Positions 53,644 through 64,000 of a stretch of DNA of 64,000 nt are shown here, piece after piece (within the stretch, counting starts at the first letter, position 1; each line of letters begins with the position of its first letter). A model generated the notes under the pieces. It had not been told where the DNA came from and ran no database searches. It was given only the letters and a program-made list of their open reading frames with translations. Source of the stretch: a virus. Its lineage: Duplodnaviria; Heunggongvirae; Uroviricota; Caudoviricetes. Location of the stretch: positions 187,694 to 251,693 of the IMG/VR virus record IMGVR_UViG_3300044673_000278; one strand, given 5' to 3'. A program made the position numbers and the translations under genes.

Positions 53644-53720
53644 TGGTGCCCCCAGCGGGACTCGAACCCGCAAAATTCTGATTTTGAGTCAGACACGTAT
53701 ACCAATTCCATCACAGGGGC
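53644..53720 (-). tRNA. tRNA with anticodon CAA (Leu-type anticodon) but class-I architecture
   Basis: Acceptor GCCCCTG/TGGGGGC, A73, CCA encoded. Anticodon stem TCTGA/TCAGA with loop CTCAAAA. Variable arm only ATTTT. T-arm GCGGG-TTCGAGT-CCCGC. Confidence 0.5.
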
Positions 53721-53777
53721 ATTGGTTATTCAAGTATATATTATACTTGAAGTCTGGTTTGTTGTAAACCAGGTTCT

Positions 53778-53855
53778 TGGTCGGTGTAGCAAGATTCGAA
53801 CTTGCGACCCCTTGCACCCCATGCAAGTGCGCTACCCAGGCTGCGCTATACACCG
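53778..53855 (-). tRNA. tRNA-Pro (GGG)
   Basis: Anticodon stem CTTGC/GCAAG with loop ATGGGGT. T-loop TTCGAAT. CCA encoded. Confidence 0.6.
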
Positions 53856-53936
53856 TAATTGGCACGCCCTTCGGGAATCGAACCTTCGACTCTGTGGTTT
53901 TGGACACCCAGAGATCAGCCAGAGTGAGCGCATGAT
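53856..53936 (-). pseudogene. tRNA-like remnant (Trp-like anticodon loop UCCAAAA; no acceptor stem)
   Basis: Contains GGTTCGATTCC and GTCCAAAACC, but the acceptor and T stems do not pair. Confidence 0.3.
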
Positions 53937-54012
53937 TGGTGGAAGTAGTCGGGATCGAACCGACGACCTCTTGCATGCCATGCAAGCGCTCTCCCAGCTG
54001 AGCTATACCCCC
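53937..54012 (-). tRNA. tRNA-Ala (GGC)
   Basis: Acceptor GGGGGTA/TACTTCC with G3:U70. Anticodon loop ATGGCAT. CCA encoded. Confidence 0.65.
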
Positions 54013-54467
54013 ATTATATTCGTTCGCGCTTGACGCGACCTATGCGACTGGCTTTGTTCCAGTCATATGCAACACCGTCTGGGCAAACACCATCACGAAT
54101 GCTGTCTACTCCAAACATACCTACAATTTCAAAACCATCGCCTGAGATGGTAACAAAACGATTCAACAACTTGGCATGAGCCATTGCTAGATCCAGTCCA
54201 GCAAACGATGTTTCTACACCGTCACATTCAACTATAAACAATTTTTTCTCTTTTCTCTACAACAACAATAAAATGCAAACAACCGGTTTCGCTAGGGCGT
54301 GTGGCTGAGGACTATCGACCAGGGTTTGGCGCTCCGGCTCCCACAATGGATAATCTTTGACACCGGCAACAGTCAGGAACCTCTCATTCCTGCAACTTTC
54401 CGTCAGATGCGCATCACTGCGCAGAGCCATCCGGGGTATTACCCCTACACGTTTTTTGTTTGCAAAC

Positions 54468-54544
54468 TGGTGCCCTGGGCGGGACTCGAACCCGCAGCGC
54501 CACGGACCTCAACCGTGTGTGTTTGCCAATTTCACCACCTGGGC
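54468..54544 (-). tRNA. tRNA with anticodon GAG (Leu-type) but class-I architecture
   Basis: Anticodon stem CACGG/CCGTG with loop TTGAGGT. A73. Variable arm GCGCT. One A-A mismatch in the acceptor stem. Confidence 0.45.
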
Positions 54545-54555
54545 ATAGATCTTGG

Positions 54556-54631
54556 TGCGTGATGAGAGATTCGAACTCCCGACATCCAACGAGTCAAATT
54601 GGCACTCTACCAACTGAGTTAATCACGCAGA
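54556..54631 (-). tRNA. tRNA-Val (GAC), tentative
   Basis: Acceptor GCGTGAT/ATCACGC. Anticodon loop TTGACTC with a pyrimidine at position 37. T-loop TTCGAAT. Confidence 0.5.
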
Positions 54632-54680
54632 TTGCTGATTACTTGTCCTATTATACGCCATCAGCAAAGGCGAAGCTTGG

Positions 54681-54755
54681 TGTCCCTGGTAGGAATCGAA
54701 CCTGCATCTACTCTTTAGGAGAGAGTTGTTCTATCCATTGAACTACAGGGACTGA
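54681..54755 (-). tRNA. tRNA-Arg (CCT)
   Basis: Acceptor GTCCCTG/CAGGGAC. Anticodon loop CTCCTAA. Confidence 0.6.
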
Positions 54756-54760
54756 GATGG

Positions 54761-54836
54761 TGCCGCCTCCCGGGATCGAACCAGGTTCCAAGGATTTTCA
54801 GTCCTCCGCAATGACCACATTTGCTAAAGCGGCATT
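54761..54836 (-). tRNA. tRNA-Phe (GAA)
   Basis: Anticodon loop CTGAAAA. T-loop TTCGATC. Confidence 0.6.
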
Positions 54837-61053: not shown

Positions 61054-61250
61054 TATTCTTTGAGATTAGATTCTAGGAATCTTCTCTGCTACAAAGGACC
61101 CAGGACTTCCTGGAATACTATTCACAGTCGCAAAACCGCGTGACCAGGCTTGTGTCTGGAGGCACATTGCGGATTTCGGCAGTGAATGAGTGATAGCAGT
61201 CATTTTATTTCCTTGGGTTACTTGTCAGCATCGCTGCTGTCTAAGTGTTA

Positions 61251-61279
61251 ATTATACTTTACTTAGCGATTGTTGTCAA
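61251..61279 (-). promoter_or_regulatory. Consensus sigma70 promoter P8: TTGACA-17-TATAAT
   Basis: Minus strand: ttgacaacaatcgctaagtaaagTATAAT. Confidence 0.65.
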
Positions 61280-61536
61280 CCACTAAATGTTTTTCAGTGC
61301 TGTATTTATACCTCGCGACGAAAAACTACGAATTGGATGCGGGTGACAGATTCGAACTGCCGATGCACCGAGCTTATGAGACTGGTGTGGTGGCCACCCT
61401 ACCCGCTGTAATTATTTATCTATTCTGAAACACACTATCTGCGGGAATCTCACCCTATGTCAGCTTAATGTGTTTTAGAATAGTGGAGGACTGAGAATAC
61501 ATCTCTCCCAACAACACCTCGAGCATTATTACCAGC

Positions 61537-62175
61537 CTTGCGAGCCAGCTTTCTCTCGACTTCCACTAGATCCATATTGCTATGTAATCTAGTCTGCTGT
61601 CAGCATCGCCGTTTTTAAAGACAGGCAGTAGTCTTGTCGCCATATGCTATTCTACGCTTTCTATCCCGTTGACCTTGCGAGCCATTCAAGTGCGCTAACA
61701 CCTTACGAAACTTCTTGCATAAACAGATTTCACCTTGCGAGTTACGTCTGACTTGATTACCTTGCGGCTCAAGTATTAGATGCTTTTCACATATGACCGA
61801 GTCAGTCTTTGCGTTTTATATAAGGTTGGATTTGAACCAACAGCCTATTCCTTAAAAGGGAACTGCACTACCATTGTGCTACTTAACCTACTGCGATGTG
61901 CTGACTCAGTTGCTGCATACTCTTTTGGAATACACAATACAACACACCACGTTCCTTTGGTCTTGCGGACTACTCAGACGTCTTTTGCGATCAGTGTCGG
62001 GTCTCGGCTTTCGCATACCTCCACTTACCACTCAAACTGCATACGAGCCCTTGAGTGCAACCCCTCGGACAAATACGCTACCCTTTCTCATACCAATTAA
62101 CTGGACTGGTTTTGTTGTGAGGTCAGCACCACCTGTTACTCTCTAATGACTTGCGTTACCCTTGCAGGCGCTTGA
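61537..62175. repeat. Five dispersed copies of a CCTTGCGAG-like motif in an ORF-free region (iteron-like)
   Basis: Copies at about 61540, 61671, 61733, 61760 and 62159, with consensus (A/T)(A/C)CCTTGCGAG(C/T). Confidence 0.4.
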
Positions 62176-62570
62176 GCCACTAATTCTTTCCACAACTTCC
62201 AGCGTCATTGTTACAACCACCGGTCTTATCAGTGATCGCTACCTCACGGTAGTGAGCAGGCTTGTCTAAACGAACCATTGCTGGCGGAGTTGCGTAGGCT
62301 TACCTCCTTTGGCTGTGTCACCACAGTTATTCTTCACTAGACAGCAAGCTGCCTAGTAGGACATTAAACTGCCCTTGTATTCTATTGTAACATCAACTGC
62401 TGAACTTGTCAACAACTAATTTTACCAAATCTGTAAACAACTGCACACTATGCAGGACTTGAACCTGCCAACACTGCTCCATTCGGGGCAATGCTAGATC
62501 CACCTCTATCAGCGTGTACGGCGCCTTGATGTGCATGTGTTTAAAGACTTTTGTTACTGTCTAAGTATCT

Positions 62571-62599
62571 ATTGTATGACAAACGTCTTTGCTTGTCAA
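62571..62599 (-). promoter_or_regulatory. Sigma70 promoter P9: TTGACA-17-TACAAT
   Basis: Minus strand: ttgacaagcaaagacgtttgtcaTACAAT. Confidence 0.55.
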
Positions 62600-62802
62600 A
62601 CAGTTTTGGATAAACTGATCCGCCTACTACCCTGCGTTTAAAGGTGCTGAACACATTGCTGCGCTCACTTCCTTCCACCAACATGGTTTGACCGTGACTA
62701 GCAGTCGTGACTAGATTAGTCCCAGAGGCAGTGGATCAACAGGTGTCCCTTGGTAGTTGGGCCCATCGTCATTGAGTTTCTGACACAGGCGGACAGTTTA
62801 AC

Positions 62803-62894
62803 TGGTAGGAGTGGAGAGGATCGAACTCTCTCAAGAACGCTAATCTGGCGCTAAAAGGTTTATAAAACCTCCCTGACTACCAAGTCTCACTCCC
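62803..62894 (-). tRNA. Class-II (long variable arm) tRNA-like gene with an unusual anticodon arm (UAU-like)
   Basis: Acceptor GGGAGTG/CACTCCT, A73, CCA encoded. T-arm GAGAG-TTCGATC-CTCTC. Anticodon arm AGGTTT-TAT-AAACCT. Confidence 0.4.
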
Positions 62895-62992
62895 ATTGAA
62901 AAACACACTCTTGAACAGTCCTTCAACGTACAGTCGCTGTCTCCCTTACTGATCGGGCGGATCTGTGAGTGTGTTTATCAATGGAGTCTTGT

Positions 62993-63067
62993 TGGTACAC
63001 CGTATGGGTTTCGATCCCATCTCACTAGTTTGAAGGACTAGCGGCCACCCCAGCTGCCTCACGGTGT
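62993..63067 (-). tRNA. tRNA-Glu (TTC), tentative
   Basis: Acceptor ACACCGT/ACGGTGT. Anticodon loop CCTTCAA. T-loop variant ATCGAAA. Overlaps the 3' end of the endonuclease ORF. Confidence 0.45.
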
Positions 63068-63642
63068 GTATATTGATTATGTCCCGACACAACTCTGTTA
63101 CCTTTTAACGAGCACGAGCGAGAACAATATACTTTGGTATACTTTGATGATTTATCCTTGCCAAAGATGTTACCGCAGCAAGCACATGTATACTCAAATT
63201 TTGGTTTGTATTCATCGTAAAGTGACTTATAGTTTTTAGTATAAGTGGACTTCACATAGTTGAATTCTTCTTGTAAATCATCGGCTCTTAATACCACAAC
63301 TTCGTATCCGTTGTTGTTTGCTATTAAAGTCTTTGCATCAACTTTGGCTTGATCTTCAAAGCCCTTTATTTCAATAATCTTGTTGTTCTGAACAAAGTCG
63401 GGAAAATATTTTTTTCCGTTGAACTCTAAGAATCCTTCAAATCGATTAAAGTCTAGGCCATGATCAAGTTGGTATATGACCCAGCACAACTCATATGTTG
63501 ATCCGCAATAGATACCTTTGTAGTATCCTGTTTTTGCTCTGCCTGAACCGGGACGGTAACCTCCTTTTGAAGCTTTACCGCCACAAGTTCTAGAGCAATA
63601 TTTGTTTTTAGCATCTTTACCACAAACAATACATGAGTTCAT
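63025..63642 (-). CDS. Homing-endonuclease-like protein (Zn finger plus PD-(D/E)xK motif)
   Basis: Start set to MNSCIVCGK (ATG at 63642, AAGGA SD). FPDFVQNNKIIEIKG is a PD-(D/E)xK-like motif. Its 3' end overlaps tRNA-Glu. Confidence 0.5.
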   Translation of the reverse strand: MNSCIVCGKDAKNKYCSRTCGGKASKGGYRPGSGRAKTGYYKGIYCGSTYELCWVIYQLDHGLDFNRFEGFLEFNGKKYFPDFVQNNKIIEIKGFEDQAKVDAKTLIANNNGYEVVVLRADDLQEEFNYVKSTYTKNYKSLYDEYKPKFEYTCACCGNIFGKDKSSKYTKVYCSRSCSLKGNRVVSGHNQYTHREAAGVAASPSN

Positions 63643-63931
63643 ATTAAGTTCCTTTGTATTATTTATGACGACCTTGATTTTTATTGACCTCACCAGAAGT
63701 CTAATGCGACATGTTGAATTTGAGAGTAGTGCCACCCTGTTATAGGCACCATTCACCCGATTTAACAAGTCCGGACGGGATTCGGTACGTCACTTGGGAT
63801 TCATCCAGCGTGGTAACCATGCTACACCGATCTTCCGATCGGCCGGGAGTCGAACCCGCTTGCCTTCTATTACTCAGTACCTTCGAAGAATACTGCATAA
63901 CGTGACTTCACTTGCTGACACTCTCAAAACT

Positions 63932-64000
63932 TGGCGGTCTTAGGGGGTAACGATCCCCTTCTTCGAGCGTGACAAGCCGTCGTGCGTCCATGAACACTTT
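63932..64000 (-). tRNA. tRNA, 3' portion only (truncated by the window end)
   Basis: 3' end ...AGGGG-ATCGTTA-CCCCT-AAGACCG-CCA. The 5' half lies beyond 64000. Confidence 0.3.

Follow-up and report, generated by a model that had tools for sequence, protein, structure and literature searches.

The window analysed here is a stretch of 64,000 nucleotides (nt) from the IMG/VR virus record IMGVR_UViG_3300044673_000278 (positions 187,694 to 251,693; Caudoviricetes), and its last 10 kb or so hold a dense array of transfer RNA (tRNA) genes interspersed with a GOLLD RNA, a candidate structured RNA that we call R1, long spacer hairpins and four endonuclease genes. We consider this region, with a probability of about 0.8, to be the translation-RNA island of an uncultivated jumbo myophage with a genome of at least 250 kb. 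As part of this explanation, at least 37 tRNA or tRNA-like genes, standing head to tail on one strand, would be expressed as several polycistronic units behind near-consensus sigma-70 promoters.

ARAGORN at its default settings placed 33 tRNA genes in the whole window, every one of them on the minus strand within 53644-63067, and the Rfam tRNA model RF00005 at its gathering threshold of 29 bits recovered 31 in the same stretch (31.5-72.6 bits, E-values down to 6e-14). A relaxed ARAGORN threshold raised the count to 36 by adding Pro(UGG) at 59183-59260, Asn(GUU) at 60360-60438 and tRNA(CAU) at 61334-61407. Five genes, namely Glu(UUC), Lys(CUU), the second Asn(GUU), the atypical tRNA(CAU) and a tRNA(UAU) with a long variable arm, were found by ARAGORN only. 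The terminal CCA is encoded in 35 of the 36 genes, the exception being a module embedded in the GOLLD RNA, and most tRNAs are separated by 1-10 nt. Because a tRNA-Asp without its first 6 nt stands at the window end, the array continues beyond position 64000; counting this gene, the total comes to about 37 tRNA or tRNA-like genes. The contigs that carry exact copies of the endonuclease proteins are at most 12.3 kb long, and none of them reaches past this position.

An earlier reading made from the letters alone (hereafter the sequence-only reading) had parsed by hand at least 31 tRNAs in about 10 kb, all on the minus strand and most with an encoded CCA. These statements were confirmed, and neither ARAGORN nor Rfam recovered far fewer genes than the hand parsing. 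Its list of amino acids proved essentially right, except that Arg was undercounted (there are three, with anticodons CCU, UCG and ACG) and the two tRNAs with Leu anticodons CAA and GAG were omitted. The description of the array as exceptionally large was an overstatement, because phages with 67 tRNAs are known (PMC7162821) and an array of this size is typical of the family, scanned relatives having 12-38 tRNAs.

The tRNA genes are listed below from the window end inwards. All were called by ARAGORN at its default threshold unless stated otherwise, bit scores are those of RF00005, and loci of related phages are designated by L numbers.

63932-64000, minus: tRNA-Asp(GUC) without its first 6 nt; recognised by end-to-end alignment with the tRNA-Asp of L111 and L016; CCA
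62993-63067, minus: tRNA-Glu(UUC); encodes CCA; no Rfam match at E <= 1
62803-62894, minus: 92-nt tRNA with long variable arm, anticodon UAU, A73 and CCA
61334-61407, minus: atypical tRNA(CAU) with aberrant D arm and CCA end; relaxed ARAGORN threshold only
60691-60765, minus: tRNA-Ala(UGC), 50.5 bits
60608-60681, minus: tRNA-Trp(CCA), 57.1 bits
60525-60598, minus: tRNA-Gln(UUG), 60.4 bits
60447-60521, minus: tRNA-Ile(GAU) copy 2, 52.9 bits
60360-60438, minus: tRNA-Asn(GUU), weak second copy; relaxed ARAGORN threshold only
60224-60313, minus: tRNA-Ser(GCU), 48.2 bits
60143-60217, minus: tRNA-Asn(GUU), 62.5 bits
60060-60135, minus: tRNA-Gly(GCC), 72.6 bits
59979-60054, minus: tRNA-Thr(UGU), 70.1 bits
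59398-59471, minus: tRNA-Thr(GGU), 61.7 bits
59270-59346, minus: tRNA-Pro(GGG) copy 2, 61.7 bits
59183-59260, minus: tRNA-Pro(UGG), weak second copy, 31.5 bits; relaxed ARAGORN threshold
58461-58536, minus: tRNA-Phe(GAA), endonuclease-linked copy, 50.7 bits
58295-58372, minus: tRNA-Arg(ACG), 53.7 bits
57264-57338, minus: tRNA-Lys(CUU); encodes CCA; below Rfam threshold
57187-57260, minus: tRNA-Lys(UUU), 47.4 bits
56522-56596, minus: tRNA-His(GUG), 54.0 bits; within inverted repeat I2
56437-56511, minus: tRNA-Met(CAU), 48.8 bits
56361-56435, minus: tRNA-Arg(UCG), 38.7 bits
56219-56295, minus: tRNA-Ile(GAU) copy 1, 64.8 bits
55947-56020, minus: tRNA-Gly(UCC), 64.9 bits
55866-55940, minus: tRNA-Val(UAC), 61.9 bits
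55782-55858, minus: tRNA-Pro(UGG), 66.0 bits
55697-55774, minus: tRNA-Cys(GCA), 46.5 bits
55598-55689, minus: tRNA-Ser(UGA), 54.5 bits
54758-54833, minus: tRNA-Phe(GAA), endonuclease-free copy, 54.6 bits
54678-54752, minus: tRNA-Arg(CCU), 67.9 bits
54553-54628, minus: tRNA-Val(GAC), 60.0 bits
54468-54544, minus: tRNA with Leu anticodon GAG, 77 nt, 54.9 bits
53937-54012, minus: tRNA-Ala(GGC), 61.8 bits
53778-53855, minus: tRNA-Pro(GGG) copy 1, 59.5 bits
53644-53720, minus: tRNA with Leu anticodon CAA, 77 nt, 56.6 bits

Phage family and unusual tRNAs

Outside the island, the window codes for proteins of virion, baseplate and head type, as judged by PHROG profile matches; among them is a baseplate-type protein with distant similarity to counterparts in the jumbo myophages Atu_ph07, Phosso and PA5oct. 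The carbamoyltransferase of the window also occurs, unchanged in sequence, on a contig of 251,693 bp. The end of the island is marked by a DUF458/RNase H-like gene (53156-53626, minus strand; PF04308, 9e-15), which served as an anchor and has 401 relatives in IMG/VR, on contigs of up to 364 kb. When 20 kb round the anchor gene was scanned in 24 relatives, 12-38 tRNAs were found, with 19-38 in every locus except one, and their order was largely conserved. The phage family is abundant and uncultivated, and a syntenic tRNA island around the DUF458 RNase H-like gene is common to its members. At the DNA level it has no close cultured phage among 50,697 phage records, against which the island gave only tRNA-size megablast matches, to Burkholderia, Ralstonia and Variovorax phages.

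An array with these contents could instead be a bacterial one, residing in a chromosome or integrative element as in Mycobacterium. Mycobacterial arrays do have the same ingredients, and in 185,579 reference genomes the R1 motif was matched only by a contig from a Haliscomenobacter sp. metagenome-assembled genome (MAG), which has the same array. This 183-kb contig (NZ_JBBAKG010000001.1, our L103) bears the same phage-type island, which has 20 tRNAs in 8 kb and includes R1 as well as the tRNA(UAU) and the atypical tRNA(CAU). The simpler and probable explanation is that a contig of a jumbo phage was binned with a bacterial MAG; otherwise the contig is a hint at the host. The relatives found, however, are all IMG/VR viral contigs, and the window itself encodes virion, baseplate and head proteins, which makes a bacterial array very improbable.

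The DUF458 gene is also embedded in the tRNA arrays of the cultured, unrelated phages DLP_6 (Stenotrophomonas), BUDD (Xanthomonas) and MD18 (Phaeobacter), which hold 25 to at least 35 tRNAs. Those genomes measure 150-200 kb, and their DNA resembles the window in tRNA-size pieces only; like the GOLLD of the window, a GOLLD-like stretch in MD18 surrounds a tRNA. Because the gene recurs within the tRNA arrays of unrelated phages, its distribution suggests a role in tRNA or RNA processing. In relatives it is embedded in the array or closes it (L081 5992-6474, L082 12983-13468, L105 3995-4468). Vibrio phage nt-1 rules out that the gene always lies beside tRNAs. A literature search at the level of titles and abstracts returned nothing evidently concerned with DUF458 in phage tRNA islands.

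The 92-nt tRNA(UAU) is well conserved as a structure: six homologues, when aligned, have compensatory changes at 16 of 19 stem pairs and keep the loops of the anticodon arm (UUUAUA) and the variable arm (CAGAUWA). Homologues lie at L004 2511-2602, L014 800-889, L028 7097-7188, L052 4378-4468 and L081 2650-2741, and phage DLP_6 has the same 92-nt tRNA(UAU), annotated as tRNA-Ile-TAT. With its long variable arm and an anticodon that is neither Ser nor Leu, it is reminiscent of the allo-tRNAs, among whose predominant anticodons is UAU (Mukai et al., 2017, PMC5389517), and it weakly matches the tRNA-Sec model (30 bits). Its acceptor and T stems, however, are the canonical 7 and 5 base pairs (bp) rather than 8/4 or 9/3, in the ARAGORN fold as well as in the six-sequence consensus; since it lacks this defining feature, we ruled out an allo-tRNA. 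A tRNA that recodes AUA was likewise rejected. At the eight ATA sites of the carbamoyltransferase, homologues have Ile (0.87), Val (0.10) or Leu (0.02), as they do at ATT/ATC sites, so there is no sign of recoding in what is a weak test, covering one window protein and homologues all from the same phage family.

Several other tRNAs depart from the usual form. The two with Leu anticodons, CAA and GAG, lack the long arm of bacterial tRNA-Leu and have a variable loop of 5 nt in its place, but they keep a 3-bp D stem and A73; the CAA tRNA measures 77-85 nt in relatives. In the atypical tRNA(CAU) (61334-61407, minus strand), just downstream of GOLLD and conserved in L014, L055, L061 and L103, the hairpin GGUGGCCACC replaces the normal D arm and positions 1 and 72 are mismatched, followed by CCA at the end; it may be a tRNA for Met or, by way of lysidine, Ile2. 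The T loops of Met, the second Phe copy, Thr(GGU) and Asp read AUCGAUA, AUCGUAA or AUCGUUA in place of the usual UUCGAAU (repeat family D6), so that position 54 is A in these four. The 5' leader of tRNA-His (56590-56609) pairs over 20 nt (90%) with its 3' trailer (56513-56532), extending the acceptor stem of the precursor.

Hints at the host came from relatives, several of which have a permuted, two-piece transfer-messenger RNA (tmRNA) of betaproteobacterial type in or near the island (L021 at 2439-2831, L031 at 48-472, L033, L041, L042, L048, L055 and L056), with the tag ANDEQFALAA or ANDSQFALAA; no tmRNA was found within the window. A Burkholderiales host, to which the tmRNA type and the tRNA-size matches point, was not adopted, as the Haliscomenobacter MAG contig conflicts with it. 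Two other relatives carry a small omega-like RNA polymerase open reading frame (ORF; PF01192) together with a class I release factor gene (PCRF/RF-1), at 1626-3382 in L109, where the release factor is split in two ORFs, and at 1995-3673 in L110; the islands of both also bear a 205-residue endonuclease identical to that of the window (63025-63642). Beside the virion genes of the window lies a plus-strand cluster (9983-23306) that is possibly a modification or biosynthesis module, with radical SAM matches in three plus-strand ORFs (9983-11563, 12646-13971 and 13953-15650) and a Nol-like carbamoyltransferase ORF (21828-23306, plus strand; phrog_1601, 1e-87).

GOLLD, R1 and the spacer elements

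Apart from tRNAs, the island contains larger RNAs, hairpins, promoters and one small protein-coding unit, as follows.

61485-62377, minus: GOLLD RNA, about 890 nt, with 5' domain at about 61951-62377 and Rfam-matched 3' domain at 61488-61950
61817-61888, minus: tRNA-like module with anticodon UUU in the GOLLD linker; RF00005, 61.6 bits
62614-62797, minus: candidate structured RNA R1, about 185 nt; covariation, no Rfam match
62893-62984, minus: spacer hairpin with AAACAC/GTGTTT arms; inverted repeat I3, z -5.7
62425-62548, minus: hairpin-closed element with T-arm-like stem-loop, a weaker member of the spacer hairpins; z -2.2, arms by eye
61420-61483, minus: spacer hairpin right after the GOLLD 3' end; I9, z -5.2; 5' arm kept after GOLLD in relatives
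60769-60865, minus: spacer hairpin enclosing a tRNA remnant with T arm; I6, z -5.7
57094-57191, minus: spacer hairpin whose 5' arm begins at the ACCA end of tRNA-Lys; I1, z -5.9
56894-56997, minus: spacer hairpin enclosing a T-arm-like stem; I7, z -5.5
56610-56736, minus: spacer hairpin; I8, z -5.7; 84% conserved in L005 and L016
56735-56900, minus: tRNA-like element of about 150 nt, copy A; direct repeats D7 (90%) and D11 (72%) with 55049-55185
55030-55195, minus: the same element, copy B; direct repeats with copy A
62571-62599, minus: sigma-70-type promoter TTGACA-17-TACAAT, 11/12 positions
62384-62412, minus: GOLLD promoter TTGACA-17-TACAAT with TG extension, 11/12 positions
61251-61279, minus: sigma-70-type promoter of the small transcription unit, 12/12 positions
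58257-58285, minus: sigma-70-type promoter TTGACA-17-TATAAT, 12/12 positions
56331-56359, minus: sigma-70-type promoter with TG extension, 11/12 positions
53740-53768, minus: sigma-70-type promoter, 11/12 positions
61018-61279, minus: small unit of promoter (61251-61279), 45-codon ORF (61066-61203) and intrinsic terminator (61018-61052)

The GOLLD RNA had been missed by the sequence-only reading, which counted the module in its linker as an ordinary tRNA-Lys. The Rfam model RF02032 matches over its entire length (model positions 1-416 of 416) with 198.9 bits against a gathering score of 150 (E-value 1.2e-54), and the roughly 427 nt between a conserved promoter and the start of this match constitute the 5' domain, its 5' end being set from the promoter position. 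Homologues of the whole unit of about 960 nt occur in about ten relatives at 73-85% identity. RNAalifold on an alignment of eight sequences predicted 246 pairs, 104 of them with compensatory double changes, many in columns 62-465 of alignment A4, supporting a structured 5' domain, and the promoter is kept upstream of seven of the eight homologues. The linker module folds as a cloverleaf with an acceptor stem cut to 4 bp and without CCA; homologues keep it at the same place, with anticodon UUU or GUU.

GOLLD RNAs are known from the vicinity of tRNA islands; some have a tRNA in the linker, and they form a 14-mer cage, although the D7-symmetric 14-mer nanocage is known only for env-38 GOLLD (PMC12286853). 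The RNA of the window resembles env-38 in its full 3'-domain match, its 5' domain of about 430 nt and its setting in a phage tRNA island; it measures about 890 nt compared with 833 nt. Both have a variable linker after the first 3'-domain hairpin. In env-38 this is a disordered, inward-facing loop of 42 nt, whereas here it is about 110 nt long and holds the tRNA-like cloverleaf. By homology to env-38, the GOLLD of the window would form an RNA cage of 14 copies that encloses the tRNA-like module.

R1 fills the space that separates the long-arm tRNA(UAU) from the next promoter. Many relatives have it too, with 67-80% identity; its place among their tRNAs varies (it is often directly 3' of the tRNA(UAU)), and loci without GOLLD also contain it. 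RNAalifold on 15 sequences aligned with MAFFT gave 38 pairs, 18 of them compensated. A covariance model run on 81 sources then gave 34 matches, all of them single-copy and on the tRNA strand, and R1 is present once in at least 33 loci of related phages; in the resulting alignment 97% of cells pair and 25 of the 38 pairs show double changes, compared with 35-46% of cells and 8-13 pairs when the partners were slid by 1-3 columns. Because the covariance model shaped this alignment, the counts are guarded by the slid controls and, independently, by the outcome of MAFFT/RNAalifold. The motifs AAAAACUCAUUGAC, AUGGGCCCAACU, GACUGCUAGUCACAGUC and CCUUUAAAC are invariant, and an exact-motif scan found R1 on 22 viral contigs of the same family and on the one 'Haliscomenobacter' MAG contig with the same island. 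A loop-loop pairing of TGAC with GUCA is possible.

Searches for known counterparts of R1 gave nothing: 4227 Rfam 15 covariance models run with lax filters produced no match at E <= 10 save a chance one of 12.8 bits, blastn against the 50,697 phage records found no match, and R1 was not found in DLP_6 or MD18. Comparison by eye with the signal recognition particle RNA, RNase P, 6S, tmRNA and Y RNA revealed nothing convincing, and a short-RNA assembly of the manA/EGFOA type (bioRxiv 10.64898/2026.07.01.735769) was rejected, both Rfam families giving no match. We regard R1 as a putative stable RNA released from the tRNA transcripts. The tRNA cluster of phage T4 has stable 'species 1 and 2' RNAs, which are small non-tRNA RNAs beside tRNA genes; R1 is likened to them by function only, no relation in sequence or structure being expected.

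It could be argued that the GOLLD match and the 185-nt RNA are decayed debris of the tRNA array that happens to fold. The island does contain tRNA remnants, such as the T-arm-bearing inserts inside spacer hairpins, and the GOLLD linker module is a truncated tRNA. Yet GOLLD spans the whole Rfam model at 48.9 bits above the gathering score and keeps its 104 compensated pairs and its promoter across diverged homologues, and the pairing of R1 far exceeds that of the slid controls. We find an origin as debris scarcely credible.

Six spacers of the array are long hairpins with conserved arms and fold z-scores of -5.2 to -5.9. The design is shared by relatives and runs ACCATATR, A.C mismatch, AAACACAYT, 30-50 variable bases, ARTGTGTTT, YATATGGT: the 8-bp outer stem covaries and is followed by the A.C mismatch, a stem of 10-12 bp with AAACACA/UGUGUUU and a variable interior of 30-90 nt, sometimes with tRNA remnants. 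Such hairpins occur in 29 related loci, always on the tRNA strand and often with the 5' arm starting at a tRNA ACCA, and in L038 and L053 they stand on both sides of GOLLD. The hairpins probably act as signals for RNA processing, possibly of the RNase III type in view of the 20-bp stem with its single mismatch; alternatively, they possibly mark cassette boundaries. It is tempting to speculate, at a little under even odds, that R1 is an undescribed class of single-copy, multi-helix RNA, restricted to this family and functional in the manner of GOLLD, ROOL and manA, usually standing just behind the long-arm tRNA(UAU), and that the spacer hairpins starting at tRNA ACCA ends make up a phage-specific RNA-processing code.

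The tRNA-like element of about 150 nt has a hairpin as well as D-arm-like and T-arm-like parts, and its two copies, 72-90% identical, differ by compensatory changes; a widespread family was rejected, as the close relative L003 is the only other source in which the element was found.

Promoters of near-consensus sigma-70 type, with 11-12 of 12 positions matching, stand at six places on the minus strand and divide the island into several units; three of them (58257-58285, 61251-61279 and 53740-53768) share an extended similarity (repeat family D9). In the small unit, the peptide motif AWS[RH]xFxxVNSIPGxxGS of the 45-codon ORF is conserved in at least 20 related loci, with indels in multiples of three. 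This ORF has a ribosome-binding site, and the terminator stem is 94-100% conserved in many loci; the terminator hairpin is listed by the scan at 61023-61047 on the plus strand and by the repeat finder as I17, the minus-strand reading being made by eye.

Endonuclease genes within the array

Four endonuclease-like genes lie between the tRNAs, as the sequence-only reading had stated. Two are HNH genes, one is a clear and one a probable PD-(D/E)xK gene.

57425-58186, minus: HNH homing endonuclease, 253 residues; phrog_655, 1e-31
59518-59934, minus: HNH homing endonuclease, 138 residues; phrog_14736, 1.5e-22, and phrog_10822, 2.9e-22
58527-59117, minus: PD-(D/E)xK endonuclease (T7 endonuclease I-like) with N-terminal zinc finger and NUMOD3; PF05367 (Phage_endo_I), 35.4 bits (cut-off 29.1), and phrog_15137, 6e-17
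63025-63642, minus: probable PD-(D/E)xK homing endonuclease, 205 residues; weak phrog_1271, 2e-8; PDF..EIKG core in common with ORF 58527-59117

Homologues of these genes occur in 1-7 of about 100 related loci, compared with 24 for a small neighbouring ORF. The longer HNH gene has homologues in two loci, and L014 and L016 clearly lack it in their syntenic spacer between Arg(ACG) and Lys(CUU); the shorter HNH gene is found in seven loci, at varying places. Both PD-(D/E)xK genes run into a tRNA. The 3' end of ORF 58527-59117 overlaps tRNA-Phe (58461-58536) by 10 nt, and a Phage_endo_I-like gene abuts or overlaps tRNA-Phe in three phages (that of the window, L005 and L077), of which the window and L005 each hold a second, endonuclease-free tRNA-Phe. 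In the window the tRNA-Phe region forms an 86-nt direct repeat (D8) with 54758-54843, at 83% identity. The 3' end of ORF 63025-63642 overlaps tRNA-Glu by 43 nt; its 205-residue protein is unchanged on 13 contigs, with an overlap of about 43 nt in the three examined, and in L109 and L110 the tRNA-Glu/endonuclease pair is followed by the long-arm tRNA(UAU) as in the window, while the arrays further downstream differ.

The endonuclease genes, sporadic among relatives at syntenic sites, are judged to be mobile because of this patchy distribution and because each PD-(D/E)xK gene overlaps one specific tRNA. Units of endonuclease plus tRNA (Phe and Glu) would move together, duplicating single tRNAs and making the arrays mosaic, and the overlapping pairs offer a concrete route for the copying and shuffling of tRNAs between phages. 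The gene order of the array core is the same with or without the endonuclease genes, which argues that the four free-standing genes are selfish passengers that add mosaicism and not the origin of the array. The proposal that they drive array expansion thus fits as far as mobility and the duplication of single tRNAs are concerned, but they did not create the array, whose core order is conserved.

The decoding set and its purpose

Codon coverage was assessed by standard wobble rules and the codon use of 39 window ORFs. Together the 36 anticodons cover 51 of 61 sense codons, corresponding to 83% of the codons used; with the tRNA-Asp at the window end, 53 of 61 sense codons, about 90% of the used codons and 19 amino acids are covered. 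We therefore propose that the near-complete set would constitute a nearly self-sufficient decoding kit, rendering phage translation independent of the host tRNA pool. Since the promoters are near-consensus sigma-70 sites, host RNA polymerase would transcribe the units immediately upon entry of the DNA, and mature tRNAs already bearing CCA would be set free by RNase P and 3' exonucleases of the host. Such a kit would cover codon mismatch, the breakdown of host RNA or tRNA-cleaving defence nucleases.

The sequence-only reading had held that the near-complete set chiefly compensates for a strong mismatch between phage and host codon usage. The phage ORFs have a G+C content at third codon positions of 0.45 and favour A/U-ending codons, and the mismatch would be large if the host were one of the GC-rich Burkholderiales, as hinted at by the tRNA-size megablast matches and the tmRNA type. 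The tRNA set, however, seems to serve general purposes and not to be tuned to the codons of the phage. The Pro, Ala, Val, Thr and Gly boxes each have a G34 as well as a U34 isoacceptor, an arrangement for every four-codon box that looks like replacement of the whole pool; some tRNAs serve codons rare in the phage, for example Arg(CCU), whose codon AGG makes up 5% of Arg codons, and Pro(GGG), which is present twice; and the second most used Leu codon, CUG (25%), has no reader within the window. We consider compensation of codon mismatch to be the chief purpose unlikely.

A general-purpose set fits better with an escape from host RNA shutdown or tRNA-cleaving defences than with codon mismatch. 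The set may thus chiefly be an insurance against loss of host tRNAs, whether by phage-induced RNA degradation or by tRNA-cleaving defence nucleases, with phage tRNAs differing in sequence from those of the host to escape cleavage. Coverage is near-complete regardless of codon frequency, the consensus host-type promoters imply immediate expression, and the unusual T loops (D6), the class I Leu tRNAs and the long-arm tRNA(UAU) depart from common tRNA forms. In published cases, phage tRNAs rescue infection from tRNA-targeting defences by neutralising PARIS and retron effectors (PMC11464382, PMC11555353), and by analogy these cases would likewise fit the shutdown and defence readings better. The atypical features of the tRNAs in the window are, however, linked to no known nuclease recognition site, and we rate insurance as the chief purpose plausible, if clearly short of even odds.

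Some observations weigh against the island as a complete and functional decoding kit of this phage. The array is cut by the window end and the full set extends past it; within the window there is no tRNA for Tyr, for Leu CUA/CUG/UUA, for Arg AGA or for Ser UCC/UCU. From their sequences, the weak Pro(UGG), the weak Asn(GUU), the tRNA(CAU) with its odd D arm, Glu and Lys(CUU) may not be functional as tRNAs. Cage formation by the GOLLD of the window is presumed by analogy, from family membership only. Host hints conflict, betaproteobacterial-type tmRNA in relatives standing against the Haliscomenobacter-binned contig.

A tRNA array with homing endonucleases is an ordinary feature of giant phages and nothing new in kind. 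The tRNA region of phage T5 has the free-standing HNH endonucleases F-TflI, F-TflII and F-TflIV. It shares with the window a tRNA cluster of a large lytic phage with intergenic homing endonuclease genes that vary between relatives; the window differs in having more tRNAs, PD-(D/E)xK as well as HNH genes, and two overlaps with tRNAs (10 and 43 nt). Mycobacterial tRNA arrays with GOLLD and HNH genes were reportedly described by Morgado and colleagues in 2020. They resemble the window in having more than 30 tRNAs, a GOLLD flanked by tRNAs with a pseudo-tRNA in it, HNH genes and a tRNA with anticodon UAU, whereas the window comes from a virion-encoding jumbo phage with a Gram-negative-type host and combines sigma-70 consensus promoters with R1, the spacer hairpins and four endonuclease genes, which fall into two classes. 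In M. aubagnense, the '32 tRNA cluster' contains a GOLLD with a pseudo-tRNA and an HNH gene and is of presumed phage origin (PMC6582537). As the combination of tRNA array, GOLLD and HNH is already published, the island is of a known kind. Huge phages carry up to 67 tRNAs per genome, in numbers that scale with genome size and with sequences distinct from those of the host (PMC7162821); the window does not differ in kind from such translation sets, and its relatives also have tmRNA and a release factor in the island. R1, the spacer-hairpin design, the endonuclease-tRNA pairs fused by overlap and the recurrence of DUF458 in tRNA arrays may be new.

The GOLLD variant described here, with a linker cloverleaf predicted to face the cage interior, presents the configuration of the cargo hypothesis put forward in the 2025 cryo-electron microscopy paper (PMC12286853), and about ten natural homologues are available for comparison. 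Altogether, the region provides a well-resolved example from an abundant, uncultivated family of jumbo phages, and it gives leads on unstudied parts of tRNA islands, namely R1, the spacer hairpins, the long-arm tRNA(UAU) and the DUF458 gene.

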